Source of the DNA: Raja brachyura
Lineage: Eukaryota
Direction of reading: 5' to 3'
Length of the DNA: 64,000 nt
NCBI GenBank assembly: GCA_963514005.1
Contig: OY740784.1
Coordinates: forward strand, 27,280,001-27,344,000
The notes below the pieces were generated by a model, which saw only the letters and a program-made list of their open reading frames with translations, had not been told where the DNA came from and made no database searches. Each line of letters begins with the position of its first letter. Positions within the stretch are counted from its first letter, which is position 1. Below are positions 12,801 to 64,000 of this stretch, piece after piece. Both the position numbers and the translations under genes were made by a program.

Positions 12801-15800
12801 TCAGTCTGACGAAGAATCCCAACCCGAAATGGGTCAGAAGAAGGGTCCTGACCTGTAACATTACCCATCCTTTTCTCCAGAGATGCTGCCTGACTCGCTG
12901 AGTTACTCCAGCATCTGCAGTTCCCTTCGACACATCTTGATATGGATTAATTTGTGTATGATTATTTTAATTGGGGAAGTAACACTATTTGAAATTTATG
13001 TGGTTAACATGGTTCTTTTTTTCATTTAAGTAATTATGGATGCGTGATTTTGCACTCTGGATCCCATAATTAATTCCCAACTGATCTTGCATGGTTACAT
13101 TGAGATTTAAATATCGCCTATCCTATGTTAATTGCAGCTTGCCTAATGAAACTGTGTATAATATGTTCTTAAATAGGAAATGCAGAAGTTGCCTGAAGCA
13201 GTTTTTTTCATTGAGAAAGCCAGCATGATGTTTGTGGAGAACGGAACCCCTGACACTGCTGCCATGGCGCTAGATCGGGCTGGAAAGTAAGGAATTTAAA
13301 ACTGCATCAACTAAGCAATTCCTAATTTTATAATTGTAATCGCAACCTTGGGTTTCTCGATTGAACCGCAATAGGTGAAATATACACCATTGCAGTCTAT
13401 ACTTTATATCAATGTTATCTCTCGTACACAATGTGGGTTGTGTTTACAATAATTTTTCCACGGTCAAATTGTTTACATTGCATGAATTTCTCCATAAATA
13501 TTTTAATGTAAATTCTATGTAGTCTCAGAAATGTAGACAATGTAAAAAGCCACCCAGCAGTGTTATTTATAAAAGCTTATTTTATAGGTTTTAGTTTTGG
13601 AGATAGTGTGGAATCAGGCCCTTCGCTCCACTGAATCTGTGCCGACCAGTGATGACCTGTTCACTAGTTCAATCCTACACTTTAGGGACAATTTACCTAC
13701 AAACCTGCACGTCTTTGGAATGTTGGTGGAAACCGGAGCACTTGAGAAAACCCACATGGTCCCAGGGAGAACATAAAACGGGGCACCTACAGCACCCGTA
13801 GTCATGATCGAACCTGGATCTCTGGCGCTGTAAGGCAGCAACTCTACTGGTGCGCCACTGCAGCCCCATAAAATGCCTATTTCATATATACTGCTCTATT
13901 CTTGTTCTCCATAAATTAACTTTCTCTGCTTAATGGTTATAAATTATGGGATCATGGCCCATTCCACATATCAGGACACAAACTAACCAGACTGCAGTGG
14001 AATATCAAAGGAGTATTTTGCTGTTGCATGTGCTGTCTTTCACATAGTATGCCAGGGCCACATTCACGCTTGCGGTTTCAATAGCTGTCAAGGAGCTTGG
14101 CATCATCTAAGGCAACTAACTGCTTTCTGATCCCCATCTGCGGCTGTGGGCATCTGTCCTCTTGGGTACTGGTATTGTGGGTGTACTTGCACCAGAATAA
14201 CTGCATTGGCTGTAAAGGTTGGTTCACTGCCATCCTTCTCAAGGGTGAGAAAAGACAAAATGCTGCAGTAACTCAGTCGGTCAGGTCGCATTCCTGGAGA
14301 ACATGAATAGTGATGCTTCGGGTCATGACCTTTCTTCAGACCTGACCTGAAACATCACCTATATTCTCTAGGGATGCTACCTGATCACTGAATTATTGTA
14401 AACCAAGACACAAAATTCCCTGTTTCTACATTTCCCAAGGGCAATGAAGGATGCACAGTAAATGTTGGCTTTGTCAGTGATGCCCAGTTCTGAAAAATGG
14501 ATGAACCTGCTTCTTGCGTATGGCGTTCGCAGCCTAATTTTATAGGACAACTTGTTCTATTTGATCTTATTTGATATTGCACGCCGGGTTGATTGCATTC
14601 GTCGAAAAAGGGCGGACCATGTGAAGGTTGCAATCTTCCACCCCAATGAAGGAATGAATGAATGAATAAATAACAGCTATGGGACTCTAATGCCATTTGA
14701 AACCTCATCATGACTATAAACCAAATTAATTTATCCACCAGATTATGTATATTCTACCTCCAGTTTTGTCCTGTTTCGTTTCTTTGTCTTGCAGTCACCT
14801 CCCACCTAGTTCTTGAATCTCTGAATTTCCATTGTTTTTCTCGACTGATTTAAATCAGTCCCAGTGATAGAAGAGCAGTGTCACAGAACTATCTACAGAC
14901 TAAACGGAGATATGTTACTGTGGACAGTCTTCAGTTATGAAGTGGAAAATTGTTTTTTTTTAATTTTCTTTCAGGCTAATAGAAAATGTAAACTTGGAAA
15001 AAGCTGTTGAACTTTATGAACGGGCTGCCTCAGTATTTGAGGTAGGTTGTGGATAATTAAGTTCATTATTTATATTAATTTTTAAAACCCAGCTCTGGTT
15101 ATGTATTTTTGTATTTAGCATTAAACCCAACAAAAATAATTAAGGATAGATAATTAAGTATATTTTTAAATAATATAAGCTGAAAGAAAATTATCAACAA
15201 TTTATTTGGAGCATAAGCAAAAGAATAACCATGCACTGCTTAAGTAAATCATAACTCCTAATTATTTGCACAGATCACAGGAACAGCTCTTGAGGGACTC
15301 GATTGTTGTCAAAACGCTCTAGTAAATTAGACTGATCAGGTTGGTGGCACTGTGGCTACTAGAGCTGCTGCCTTGGCACCAGAGACCTGGGTTAAATCCT
15401 GACCTTGAGTACTGTCTGAATGGAGTTTGCCAGTTTTCTCTGTTCATAAGTTATAGGAGCGGAATTGGGCCATTTGGCTCATCGTCTACTCCAACATTCA
15501 ATCATGGTTGATCTATCTTTCCCGCTCAACCTCAATCTCCTGCCGTCTCCCCTTAATCCCTAACACCCGTACTAATCAAACTGTGACTGCATTGGTCTCT
15601 TCGGGTTTCCTCCCACATCCCAAAGATATACAGGTTTGTTTGTTAATAGGCATCTATAAATTTTTCTGAGTGTAAAGAGTGGATGCATAAAGTGGGATAA
15701 CATGGGACTAGTGTGAACAAGCGATTGAAGGTTGACATGGACTCGATGGGCCAAAGGGCCTGTTTTAATGCTGTATCTTTCAATCAATATTGTTATTGGG

Positions 15801-18800
15801 TTTGCCAAGGTTGATTCTTCTGGAATCTTGGACATAACCAAAGCAATCTGACTTTAGCCAAACTAGATAAAATACATGGCATGTGAGAAGAGAAATCAAT
15901 CCACATTTGTCCAACCTGTCTTGTAGCTACAGTGCCTCCATAATGTTTGGGACAAAGACCCATCATTTATTTATTTGCCTCTGTACTCCACAATTTGAGA
16001 TTTGTAATAGAAAAAAAAAATCACAAAGGCCATTTTTATATATTTTGGTTTCACCATGTAGAAATTACAGCAGTGTTTATACATATTTCCCCCACCATTT
16101 CAGGGCACCATATTGTTTGGGACACAGCAATGTCATGTGAATGAAGGTAGTCATGTTTAGTATTTTGTTGCATATCCTTTGCATGCAATGACTGCTTGAA
16201 GTCTGCGATTCATGGACATCACCAGTTGCTGGGTGTCTTCTCTGGTGATGCTCTGCCAGGCCTGTATTGCAGCCATCTTTAACTTATGCTTGTTTTGGGG
16301 GCTAGTTCCCTTCAGTTTTCTCTTCAGCATATAAAAGGCATGCTCAATTGGGTTCAGATTTGGGCGATTGACTTGGCCACTCAAGAATTGACAATTTTTT
16401 AGCTTTGAAAAGCTCCTTTGTTGCTTTAGCAGTATGTTTGGGATCATTGTCTTGCTGTAGAATGAACTGCGCCAATCAGTTTTGAGGTATTTGTGTGAAC
16501 TTGAGCAGATAGGGTGTGTCTATACACTTCAGAATTCATTATGCTACTACCATCAGCAGTTGTATCATCAATGAAGATAAGTGAGCCAGTACCTTCAACA
16601 GCCATACATGCCCAGGCCATAACACTCTCACCACCGTGTCACAGATGAGGTGGTATGCTTTGGATCTTGGGCAGTTCCTTCTCTCCTCCATACTTTACTC
16701 TTGCCATCACTCTGATATAAGTTAATCTTTGTCTCATCTGTTCACAAGACCCTTTTTCAGAACTGTGGTTGCTCTTTTAAGTACTTGGCAAACTGTAAAC
16801 TGACCATCCTATTTTTGCAGCGTAGCCTCTGTATTTCTGTTCATGAAGTCTTCTGCGGACAGTGGTTATTGACAAATCCACACCTGACTCCTGAAGAGTG
16901 TTTCTGATCTGTCAGATAGGTGTTTGTGGATTTTTCTTTATTATAGAAATAATTCTTCTGTCATCAACTGTGGAGGTCTTCCTTATCCTTAAACAGCAAT
17001 AAATGTTTCTAAAGGTGATGGAAAGACTGGAAGAAAGACAAGGTGCTGAGAGCTCTCTTATACCTGCATTAAGGAGGCAATTAAACACACCTGAGCAATT
17101 ACAAACACCCGTGAAGCCATGTGCCCCAAACATTATGGTGCCCTGAAATGGGGGACTATGTATAAACACTGCAGTGATTTATCCATAGTGAAACTAAAAT
17201 GTTTAAAAATGGCCTTTATTAAAATCTGACAATGTGCGCTTTAACCACATGTGATTTTTTTCTATTACAAATCTCAAATTGTGGCGTACAGAGGCAAATA
17301 AATATATGGTAGGTCTTTGTCCCAAACATTCTGGAGGGCACTGTAATATTCCCTAACGAAAGCAGCATTCTGGTAAACCTCTGCACCTTTTCCAAAGCTA
17401 CCACATCCTGTAATGGGACGACCAGAGCTGCATACAACACTGCTGAAGTCTTATGGAGCTGCATCATAACTTTGTGACTAGCATGCTCAATGTCACGACC
17501 AATGGAAGTGGGCATGCCATAAGCCTTCTTTACACTGTACTTGTGTTGTCACTTTCAGGGAGCTATGGACTGGGGCCCCAAGATCCCCCTGAACATCAAT
17601 GCTGTTAAGGACCTTGCAATGGACTGTGCAGCTTCCACTGAGATTTGACCTTTCAAAATACAACACGTTACACCTAGTAGTTAAAATAATTAAAGTGGAT
17701 GCAAAGAAGAGCATCATGCAAAGTAGGAGATGGGAGAAGCGGCATGGCGAAAGGTGGTGTGGTCAACTGTCATGGACTGCAGAGGAATTCAGGAGGCCAT
17801 AGCCTCCGAATAAAAGGATGTGCTTTTAGAAAGGAGATGAGGAGAGATTTCTTTAGTCAGAAGGTGGTGAATCTGTGGAATTTATTGCCACAGAATCTGC
17901 TCCTATAACTTATGAACTTATTATAGTATACTGTGATCACTCGCATTATAATACCAGAGCTGCATCCCTGGAAAAAGGTTAGGGATGGCACTAGGAACAT
18001 GAGAATAACCATGAATTATCATGGGCAATTGTTTTTAATAATGGAATTTGCTTCTGTACATAGTGAAGACGTTTCAAATGGTTGATGAGTCTATGTTGAC
18101 TTTGCATTTTTTGTTTGATAGAATGAAGAGCGTTTACGACAGTCTGCTGAATTGATGGGAAAAGTTTCCAGGCTGCTTGTCAGAGGGCGGAGGTGAGATT
18201 ATTTTCCAATGTACCGTTTGCCTCGCTAAAGACACAAAATAACCATTAATAAAGGGAAGGATGCTTTCTGTTCTTGAAACATCTCTTCCCTTTTCCATTC
18301 TGTTTTTCAAAAAAACATTGTTTTAATTTTGTATATTGGGCTGACCCATGCAAGCCTTAGCTACCCATAACATTAGCTATCTTTTCATCAGTGCTTAATG
18401 GTTGTTGTGGACTGAAGGGCCTATTTCAGTGCTGTCTCTTTGATTTTGTGTTTATTTTTAAACCATGCAGCTAATTGTAGAATCTAATTCCACCCTACAC
18501 TAGTCCCATGTGCCTGCTTTTGGCCCATATCCATCTAAACCTTTCCTGTCCATATGCCTTTTAAAATATTGTTATTGTACCTGCCTCTGACGGCTCGTTC
18601 CATATGCCTACCACCCTGTGTACTCTGGTTCCTAATAAATCTTTCCCTCCTCACCGTAAACCTATGTGCTCTAGTTCTTGATTCCCATTCTCTGGACTCT
18701 GCATCTACCCCATCTATTCCCTGTGTGATCTTATTATGAGTGTGTGTTGTTTGGTAAATGATTGCACATTCTAGGAGTGGATGGATAACATTGTGAAAAA

Positions 18801-21800
18801 TGTCTGTTAGGCAGCCGGCTAATATAGGTAAACAATTACATGTCTGTATATCACCTTTTTTCTCATTACCGACTAGTTTTCCTTGCCAGGCACTAATTGT
18901 ACTTGAGGCATTCTTCTTATTGAGTCCACACACAAGATTAGAAAGTGTTCAGACACTTCTCGGCATTTGCATACAATGGTGTCTGTCTTGCACTTCTTCT
19001 GCGTGGTGTTGGAAAAATTTGGTGAAAATAGGGCTGCGACGTGAACGCTCTTTCCTTGACCCCACTTGAGGAATTTGGGATTGTTGTTAAAGTGTCATGC
19101 TTTGTGCAGTTAAAAGTACTCTCAGTACAGTTGGAAAATGACTGGCTCGGTGAGAAATGAATAGGAATGTACCAATGGCAAGCGTCTTTTTTAAATGCAT
19201 ATGGTTCATTTGTTCGTATGATCGGTACATGCTTCCTCTCCATAATGCCTGTTCGGCTTCATATAATGTGCTTGTCAGGAAGAGCAACCTTAAGGATGAT
19301 CTTAGAGTTTGGGGGGATGATTGTGGTCATTGCTGGTTATTTGGTAGTAAAGGAGAGTTCCTGTGCACCCACTGTCATTGTCTATGGAGATGTTGTCTTG
19401 GGGAAAGACTGCTGATGATAATAGGTTTTCACCAGCAGACTGCTTTGTCCTAGATATAGTGTTTACTACATTTTTTTTTTTTTACCCATCAAGGCTTAAA
19501 TATTCCATCACAGACCTGCCAAAATATTGGGGATCAAGGAGGAGAACCTTTCTAACCCTCCTGGCTAGCCATGGTATTAACATAATATAAAAAGAGACTG
19601 GAGATGCTGGTTTATACCAATGATAGACACACAATGCTGCAGTAACTGAGTGGGATCAAGCAGCATCTCTGCAGAAAATGGATAGGTGAGGTTTCGGGTT
19701 GGGACCCTTCTTCAGACCTAAACCTGAAGTGTGTACTATCTATTTTCTTGAGACGTGCTGGGGGTGGGAGATTGCAAACTTCACGTGGTCCACCCTGTTT
19801 CGCTGAATGCAATCAACCTGGTGTGCACAATCGAATAAGATGAAATCGAACAAGTTGTCCTACAACTTTAGGCTGTGCATGCCATTTGGAAGAAGAAGAA
19901 GAGGTGCTGCCCGACCCGTTGAGTTACTCCAGCATTTTGTTTATCTATGGTATTAATCTTGTTGGTCAATGTTGCTTCTTAGGCTGTTTGATGTCGGGAG
20001 ATTTGGCTTTGCCTATGAATGGTGAGGAGAGTTGGTCAGGATGTGTCATGAAGGACCGATTCTGCCGTGAATATAAATTATCACTTTGCGGGTATAATCT
20101 AGCTGAAGATAATAGGTTTCTTTCAAGATGCTTTCTGCCTTGCCTTTCAATGTTGAGGAGAGGTGGTCAGTATCTGTCTTGAAGGAATGCCATGACTATA
20201 ATTTATCACTGTGGGCATAATTTAGTTGAAGATAATGGGTTAGTTCTAAACTGCTTTTTGTGGGAACCAGTCGTCTCCTGGTACTGGTGAGTGTAATTCG
20301 TAAATAGAGAATTTGCCTTTCGTGTGATTTTGGCGCATAGGAACTTTGACCCAACCAGCTTTGAGTTTCACCAAGTACTCCACCATGCCGCAGTCAGAAC
20401 CTGGATGTGATTCTGGATTTGGGCCCTGTGTTTGTATTTGGACTGGTGATATGATGAGGGCCACAGTTTGAACTGTGCTGGCAAAACCCAGAGCATTAGA
20501 GATCAGAATATTGCTAAGTGCCAGTTGATCACTATCTGTCACCTTCCTAGGGATTGATAATGGGACAATAAGAACAGGAACATAAGGCAGGAACATAAGA
20601 GATGGAAGCAGAATGCAGCCAAGGAGTCTGTGTGATCTCCCTATGATAGTGTGGAACTTCATTGGATGCTCCCGTTTCCTTCCGCATCCTAAAGATGGGC
20701 TGGTAGGTTGATTCCTGTTGCAAGTTGCCTCCAGCAGAGGTGGGTGGCAGGAGAATTAGTATAGAGTTGATGTGACTCTGAGAAGAATAGGTGGAGAGAT
20801 TGCAGGGCAATAAGTTGGGAGGGAGAAGGAGTCTGGTGATACATGGGATTGCACAGAGTTAAATGGAGATGGAAAAATGGAGGTTAAATGAAGATGGACT
20901 GAATGGCCTCCTTTGTGATTAGGAAAAAGTGATACTAAGTATGGCTTCTGGATAACATGGACTCGTTTGGTAATGTGCAATATATTTACAAATTGAGAAT
21001 TTATAAAAAATGGTGTATTTTACTTTTCACATGTCACTAATATTTTTTAGATCGGCATTCTTGGCATTTACCCCTGCCATAACTGTCTTCCAGTTTCAAA
21101 AGCAACTGTTCGCTATTTTTTTGCTTTCTGTCTCAAAGTCAAATCTTTCTACTGATACTCAAATTTATGTCGGCCACAATTTTACTCAGAACCTTTTGTA
21201 AGAGTCCTTGCATGAATTTTCATCAGGTGCTTGATCAACATCACCTGCCGCACTCCCCTCTCCAACCTCTTGTGTGGCCTCATCAAAAATTCAATCTGTT
21301 TAACCCTACATTGTCTTACAAGGGTCTACGGCAGGGTACAGGTTTAAGGTGAGGAGCAAGAGGTTTTGAAAGGATCTGAGAAAGGTGGTCGGAATTTGCC
21401 CCAAAAAATTGTGGTGGTGGAACGGGGAGGGAGCTGGAGACGTCGGATGTGAGAAGCACCCTCCGGTAGGTGGGTGAACCGGTGTAATTCTTCCAGCGGC
21501 TACAAGGTCGGCTGCAGGAGGTGCCCCCGGGACACAAAGATGGCTGGGCAAGGAGAGGAATGTCGTTTTGTGGGAACTGCTCCAGTACATTGAGTGTGCA
21601 GGTCTTTGGAATTGGGGCCAAAATATGGAATGTGTAATATATGCAAAATTAATTTTGCTGTCATGTTGCATATGTGACAAATAACCATTAAGACAGGCCT
21701 TTCCACAATGTATAAGTATCTAGGTGATCATAAACTTGTGTTAAGAGTTTTTTTTGGATCCAGGCATTTGTTTTGATGGCCAAGTTTACTATTTCAGTGA

Positions 21801-37650: not shown

Positions 37651-64000
<26,350 letters not shown>

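Follow-up and report, generated by a model that had tools for sequence, protein, structure and literature searches.

Bipartite non-autonomous LINEs have been reported for the RTE, Ingi, Vingi and R2 groups (PMC5786205), and HDV-like ribozymes are found in some metazoan LINEs and SINEs (review PMC6765202). Among such ribozymes, that of the trypanosome element NARTc cleaves in vitro (PMC3185411). Vingi elements are described as compact, single-ORF APE elements, sister to Ingi and devoid of RNase H (PMC13708176), and Vingi-2_Gav has a length of 3,128 bp (PMC5786205). We analysed a stretch of 64,000 nucleotides from Raja brachyura, hereafter the window, in which positions 14510-14644 very probably hold a decayed, 135-base copy of a non-autonomous retrotransposon of this kind. 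It would join bases 1-77 of a LINE, likely a Vingi, to the final 36 bases of that LINE, and a self-cleaving HDV-like ribozyme is predicted in the first 54 bases of the element. This is copy B; a second member of the family, copy A, lies on the opposite strand. Their features are as follows.

14510..14644, minus strand: whole element, copy B, 135 bp, very probably a non-autonomous, internally deleted Vingi-type retrotransposon
14591..14644, minus strand: predicted HDV-like ribozyme head, bases 1-54, with cleavage predicted 5' of G1 (14644)
14568..14644, minus strand: segment from the 5' end of the parent LINE, bases 1-77
14546..14567, minus strand: 22-base middle, bases 78-99, present in 20 parent stretches only where a copy of the element has been inserted
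14510..14545, minus strand: segment from the 3' end of the parent LINE, bases 100-135
14534-14536, minus strand: stop codon of the parent ORF (element bases 109-111)
14510-14515, minus strand: start of the (AAG)n tail
14620, minus strand: G25 to A lesion in L3, a CpG transition
14608, minus strand: G37 to T lesion, which breaks the single P1.1 C-G pair
14601, minus strand: predicted catalytic cytosine C44 (equivalent of HDV C75), intact in copy B
14645..14654, minus strand: possible decayed left target-site duplication of copy B, within a (TTCA)n microsatellite, matching 14496-14505 at 8 of 10 bases and rejected by the detector
19761..19901, plus strand: copy A, a member of the same family ending in an (AAG)n tail, with lesions that break P3 and the catalytic C
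19751..19760, plus strand: left target-site duplication of copy A, matching 19900-19909 at 9 of 10 bases

The sequence-only reading had presented the two copies as one HDV-headed element, and its description was accurate in detail. The reverse complement of copy B aligns with 19761-19895 end to end and without a gap (112 of 135 bases identical, BLAST E about 5e-36 within the window), and the two share a GGGGTGG start between unrelated flanks. Mapped on an HDV-like model, copy B retains P3 (ACC/GGT) and the catalytic CGAA, as had been claimed, and P1 and P2 as well; the swap said to be tolerated in P1 is at position 5, a U-A pair in copy A and a U.G pair in copy B. Both lesions ascribed to copy B, P1.1 G37 to T and L3 G25 to A, are exactly as described, and they differ from those of copy A, namely C18A, which breaks P3, and the change of the catalytic C44 to T. 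Copy B departs from its subfamily majority at 10 of 135 bases, like an average neutral copy, and copy A at 13 of 135. Copy B had also been said to have no clear target-site duplication: the detector found none, and the 8 of 10 match in the microsatellite is one made by eye.

The surroundings of the two copies are rich in other repeats. A common SINE was considered for the flank at 14410-14509 and is unsupported, with 0 matches in the fetched loci. A short abundant repeat with a CTGAAGA...CGAAAC motif lies at 19596-19720, 19901-19940 and 14255-14351 and at about 20 other places in the window, and copy A is inserted into one of its copies; the motif is reminiscent of the minimal hammerheads associated with Penelope-type elements. 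A further repeat family has several copies in the window, with inverted repeats inside them, at 15925-17345, 41104-42759 and 50442-51103.

That two copies within about 5 kb point to a high-copy family was correctly guessed. An exact 22-mer from the head has 10,110 matches in the 2.7-Gb genome and an exact 21-mer from the tail 4,209, the reversed-pattern controls giving 0 in both cases. As 12 of the 35 tail matches in the first 25.5 Mb of contig 1 are also accompanied by the exact head, we estimate the family at 29,000-35,000 copies (about 30,000); this is likely an underestimate, since young copies match both motifs more often. We gathered 139 distinct copies or pieces, of which 109 were near full length and could be aligned, part of this set being seeded with the window copies and thus biased towards them. 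Two subfamilies of 94 and 15 copies are apparent, each copy diverging by roughly 5-7% from its own majority. With this level of divergence, and with every examined parent copy broken (see below), the family appears old and its mobilisation has probably ended. Twenty-four runs, all of them assembled contigs, from nine organisms and one metagenome in 13 studies, contained at least half of the sampled words, and the whole element was covered in all four of these runs that were examined. A metagenome scan with a 21-base head motif returned 13 stretches, all of them chance matches in unrelated DNA. We found no paper describing this short element in the literature searched; it may already be named in Repbase or Dfam.

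Some copies have a history of their own. At G000:C1, about 14.80-14.95 Mb, twelve head matches with regular spacing, all with A25, form a tandem segmental array. A separate active A25 subfamily is unnecessary: A25 is found at about 7 of 89 independent head-selected places, counting the 12-copy array once, which is similar to other CpG sites. The copy at the centre of locus L063 has the segment between its two P2 arms apparently inverted, copies L143 and L145 are interrupted near base 99-110 by a GC-rich element with inverted ends, and copies L041 and L126 near base 95-98 by another repeat.

The sequence-only reading had taken the shared GGGGTGG as the true 5' end and proposed to tally 5' ends and duplication lengths over many copies. 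In two samples picked by their 3' sequence only (60 copies, including copy A and one duplicated pair), the 5' end is exactly the first G in 42 and within 3 bases of it in 48, and 12 copies have lost more than 2 bases from the 5' end. Target-site duplications flank 85 of the 109 near-full copies, with a median of 11 bp, against 0-9 per 109 when flanks were mismatched by shuffling, and 64 of these 85 end directly at G1. The family is thus made of dispersed copies with target-site duplications, as in SIDE-type elements, this being unclear for copy B. A target preference is also visible: TCA is present at -14..-11 in 34 of 109 copies (7-12 in control windows) and T at -1 in 60 of 109. We considered that the latter could be a non-templated base and mostly rejected this explanation, as the T is found again in the right-hand copy of the duplication in 32 of 41 cases and is therefore mostly derived from the target. 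Apart from this bias, there is no conservation upstream of the element. The tail is (AAG)n, with a mode of 3 units.

In the fold model, P1 is formed by bases 1-7 and 30-36 with a G1.U36 pair, P2 by 10-16 and 48-54, and P3 by 17-19 and 27-29; L3 has seven bases (20-26), P1.1 a single pair, C22-G37, P4 is reduced to one pair closing UUCG, and J4/2 is CGAA. Two copies had been offered as support for this fold. It does hold across many copies, but two of them are weak support because copies decay neutrally; stronger support comes from (i) the family majority, in which every model pair is standard, as had been predicted for the family consensus, and in which P1, P2, P3 and P1.1 nest in the right order of a double pseudoknot, which copy B, its P1.1 broken, does not form; (ii) the parent LINE, whose head has two differences from the element (U5-A32 to U5.G32 and CUAA to CGAA), both compatible with the fold; and (iii) the match of an intact copy, L123, to the Rfam CPEB3_ribozyme model (19.2 bits, E 0.0029, below the gathering cut-off of 35 bits, from a 91-base search of a copy chosen as intact). 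No two-sided compensatory change exists within the family. At gathering thresholds Rfam gives 0 matches over the window, and at E up to 10 copy B obtains only chance snoRNA matches and no ribozyme. A fold descriptor recovered all five hand-picked intact copies, neither window copy, and nothing (0) in 362,580 shuffled bases.

Among the 109 copies, C44 is kept in 101, U20 in 106 and G1 in 98; G25 is found in only 69 because the first searches were seeded with the A25 copy B. All core features are kept in 21 of 109 copies, and in 8 of 24 in the tail-selected sample. The intact 54-nt head that the sequence-only reading had assembled by combining the two copies is not just a construct: one version of it occurs exactly, in nature, at 364 places in the genome. 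From the model, self-cleavage is likely for such intact copies. A G25A change abolishes observable cleavage in a related ribozyme (PMC13635239), and copy B, with G25A and a broken P1.1, is thus likely dead; we consider ribozyme activity unlikely for it.

The sharp 5' end might have another origin, an internal RNA polymerase II promoter such as the trypanosome Pr77, with a ribozyme fold that is inherited from the parent and slow or unused in the short element. The head has CGTG at +24 to +27, close to the essential CGTG downstream promoter element of Pr77 at +25 to +28 (PMC4748587), and the promoter and the ribozyme of L1Tc yield the same 5' end (PMC3185411); moreover P4 is nearly absent here and P1.1 has one pair only. 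Natural HDV-like ribozymes without P4 nevertheless exist (PMC10879173), and every helix and catalytic position persists in the two subfamilies as well as in the parent LINE. Outside CpG sites, 24 tail-selected copies also diverge less in the head than in the body (4.2% vs 8.6%, the body figure being inflated by differences between subfamilies), and the two roles are not exclusive of each other. We thus regard a promoter acting in place of the ribozyme as improbable, though the most serious of the alternatives, and retain a ribozyme that sets the 5' end.

The parent was reached from the 3' end of the element. In two of the four runs, contigs depart from the element at base 100, and the sequence there is identical between the runs, a recurrent loose end that marks the junction. 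This loose-end motif occurs 351 times in the genome, and in 29 of 30 fetched motif loci the sequence is that of the element from about base 100 to its last bases. A reverse transcriptase ORF lies upstream of the shared 3' end, its stop codon being bases 109-111 of the element. In the 30 + 30 loci sampled by exact tail or head motif, the parent is absent and only short elements occur. Six of the 30 parent 3' loci (L164, L170, L172, L185, L187 and L192) have the head upstream in inverted orientation, with its start at base 9-38; these are 5' inversions as in twin priming, and they gave us the 5' end of the parent. A search with this end produced 41 matches, and 16 of the 20 stretches fetched carry the head. 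Over bases 1-77 the majorities of parent and family agree at 73 of 77 positions. The 5' ends of the parent are ragged, 5 of 16 aligning from base 1 or 2; one copy, at L233, starts at G1 and has a 12-bp target-site duplication, and L237 extends over about 3.1 kb from the parent head to the tail, with both ends present.

All 20 parent stretches are broken, the longest stop-free run being 309 codons. Pfam recognises APE and RT in the parent pieces, and no RNase_H match was obtained in the pieces that follow the RT. A relative, P0002, is intact (1,019 aa, 79% identity) and has the same make-up of APE and RT; no RNase H was detected in it at E up to 1, while the control P0099 matches at 8.5e-12. 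Searches of PDB and the ESM Atlas gave generic LINE RT matches only, and no related loci were found in viral and prokaryote contigs with P0002 as query. In a quick RT tree of 63 rows, none of them a named Vingi, Ingi or RTE, the parent falls within an RNase-H-less clade (SH-aLRT 100) that is sister to RNase-H-bearing elements (support 88-89). The tree has flaws, as one short outgroup fragment is misplaced in the clade and an RNase-H-less row, P0208, lies outside it. A clade without RNase H that is sister to RNase-H-bearing elements is how Vingi is described (PMC13708176). The parent is a broken single-ORF LINE of about 3.1 kb that encodes an endonuclease and a reverse transcriptase without RNase H, and Vingi is its best assignment.

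The structure could be as described and the parent belong to another RNase-H-less single-ORF clade, RTE for instance. Bipartite non-autonomous elements and predicted 5' ribozymes are known from RTE too (PMC5786205), and no row of the tree is a named reference. In the tree, however, the parent and the RNase-H-bearing elements form a group that leaves out the rows that we take, from their motifs, to be CR1-like and Rex1-like. The head also shares its core with the 5' end of a named Vingi, Vingi-2_Gav, whose 3,128 bp agree with the parent length, and the target-site duplication agrees with the 11-12 nt of L1Tc (PMC3383444). We therefore consider a parent from such another clade highly unlikely and keep the Vingi assignment.

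With both terminal segments shared and the middle new, the element reads as parent bases 1-77, 22 new bases, and the last 36 bases of the parent. The middle may have come from a short duplication together with a fold-back of the tail. In intact copies the 3' half forms a stem that encloses a small hairpin, bases 59-69, which come from the 5' UTR of the parent, being paired to bases 114-124, which come from its 3' UTR; the z value of the stem is -3.8 in L123 and -2.4 in copy A, and A61G of the main subfamily turns a mismatch into a G-C pair. One might speculate that this pairing of the two parent ends favoured either the deletion or the recognition by the reverse transcriptase.

The parent gave rise to several short families. 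Locus L242 (G000:C12, about 1,308,350-1,308,830, minus strand) holds another internal-deletion derivative, of about 470 bp and with a target-site duplication, and at the centre of L093 lies a derivative of about 141 bp whose junction differs. A subfamily-2 short element sits inside a near-full parent copy at L243:502-634, so the short element was still moving after that parent had inserted. Another parent copy contains, at L225:2452-3033, a stop-free ferritin-like frame (Pfam E 1e-35), which is probably a processed pseudogene.

The following scenario would account for these data. A source copy would be transcribed by host read-through or from a promoter in its own head, and the ribozyme would cut 5' of G1 and free an RNA with an exact start, as the fold and the 5' junctions suggest. 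The endonuclease and reverse transcriptase of the parent, acting in trans, would recognise the shared 3' end and the (AAG)n tail, in line with known LINE biology; the shared 3' end and the similar length of the duplications point to such mobilisation by the parent protein. The enzyme would then nick the target, with the preference observed at the insertion sites, TCA where the duplication begins and T where it ends, and target-primed reverse transcription of the RNA would leave the duplication of about 11 bp that we see. As the element is short, most copies would be full length and keep the ribozyme. G25 and the P1.1 pair have since disappeared from copy B, which is likely inactive. A classical SINE was rejected: the head is the 5' end of a LINE and not a tRNA, 5S or 7SL sequence, ARAGORN finds 0 genes in 4 of 4 loci, and no Rfam match reaches gathering in the window. 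That the host has kept copy B as a functional antisense RNA element is extremely improbable, as nothing was found in its favour, the core has two lesions, the divergence (10 of 135) is that of an average neutral copy, and the 3' stem is lost (z -0.5 vs -3.8 for L123).

A very compact predicted HDV-like ribozyme is thus present at about 30,000 places in a vertebrate genome, with a large intact minority, so that cutting of host introns during transcription could be tested on a large scale. Anolis Vingi-1 already serves as an RNA gene writer (PMC13708176); the family described here reveals which 113 bases of the parent were enough for natural mobilisation of very high efficiency, as well as a target bias.

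The head may also bear on the origin of a human ribozyme. The mammalian CPEB3 ribozyme (Rfam RF00622; PMC4836649) has the same numbering and the same core (U20, U21, C22, A23, G25, U26, G37, U38), a P1.1 of one G-C plus U-U as in this head (PMC4836649), and the identical 7 nt in L3. It differs by its single conserved intronic locus, its full P4 and its other P1, P2 and P3 sequences, and the match between them stays below the gathering score. A further likeness appears when bases 2-74 of the gharial Vingi-2_Gav, as printed in the supplement of PMC5786205, are compared by eye with the Rfam consensus of mammalian CPEB3: 48 of 50 comparable positions are identical, 36 of 38 on the 5' side of P4 and 12 of 12 on its 3' side; a further 16 model positions lay outside the comparison. 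Compared by eye with our head, the same Vingi-2_Gav 5' end has the same L3, P1 end and CGAA, and its P2 and P3 consist of other Watson-Crick pairs. The alligator SINE2-1_AMi carries a similar segment (PMC5786205). The near identity of the two printed strings suggests that the mammalian CPEB3 ribozyme may be an exapted Vingi head, which would give it a concrete origin. CPEB3 is unmentioned in the main text of PMC5786205, and we did not find this origin stated in the literature searched; it may already be on record elsewhere.

Among systems with the same plan, the hedgehog derivatives of Vingi-1_EE (Kojima et al. 2011, cited in PMC5786205) are likewise bipartite, result from an internal deletion of a Vingi LINE, have no ORF and are moved in trans; host and parent are others, and the comparison is by description, not by sequence or size. 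NARTc and RIME of trypanosomes, which derive from L1Tc and ingi and bear the Pr77 signature, have their first 77 bases in common with the autonomous partner, as here, an HDV-like ribozyme at base 1 with a 3-bp P3 and a 1-2-bp P1.1 like that of our head, and a CGTG near +25 and an 11-12-bp target-site duplication, as in this family. They differ in that the host is a protist and the parent has RNase H, that their ribozyme has 77 nt and a P4 helix, as against 54 nt and almost no P4, and that the (AAG)n tail is particular to our element. The R2 SIDEs of Drosophila join a 5' HDV-like ribozyme to the parent 3' end and spread by target-primed reverse transcription, as we propose here (PMC3414825), but they are confined to 28S rDNA and use another endonuclease class, whereas the copies of this family, tens of thousands in number, are dispersed. 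Theta and other minimal P4-less HDV-like ribozymes (PMC10879173) are double pseudoknots without the P4 domain, as here; they come from metagenomes and phages, beside tRNA genes, whereas ours heads an animal retrotransposon. We lean, by a modest margin of belief, towards a joint reading in which Vingi heads were the source of vertebrate CPEB3-type ribozymes. On this reading, the 5' end of a Vingi would have been exapted as mammalian CPEB3, and the present family would be the member reduced furthest, a P4-less form of 54 nt that seeded tens of thousands of ribozymes in one vertebrate genome, hundreds to thousands of them possibly still able to cut host pre-mRNAs, with the 77 + 36 bases as a natural minimal template for Vingi gene writers. 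The type of element is already known, and the one described here is a further internally deleted LINE of the kind represented by RIME, NARTc, the R2 SIDEs and the hedgehog Vingi derivatives.
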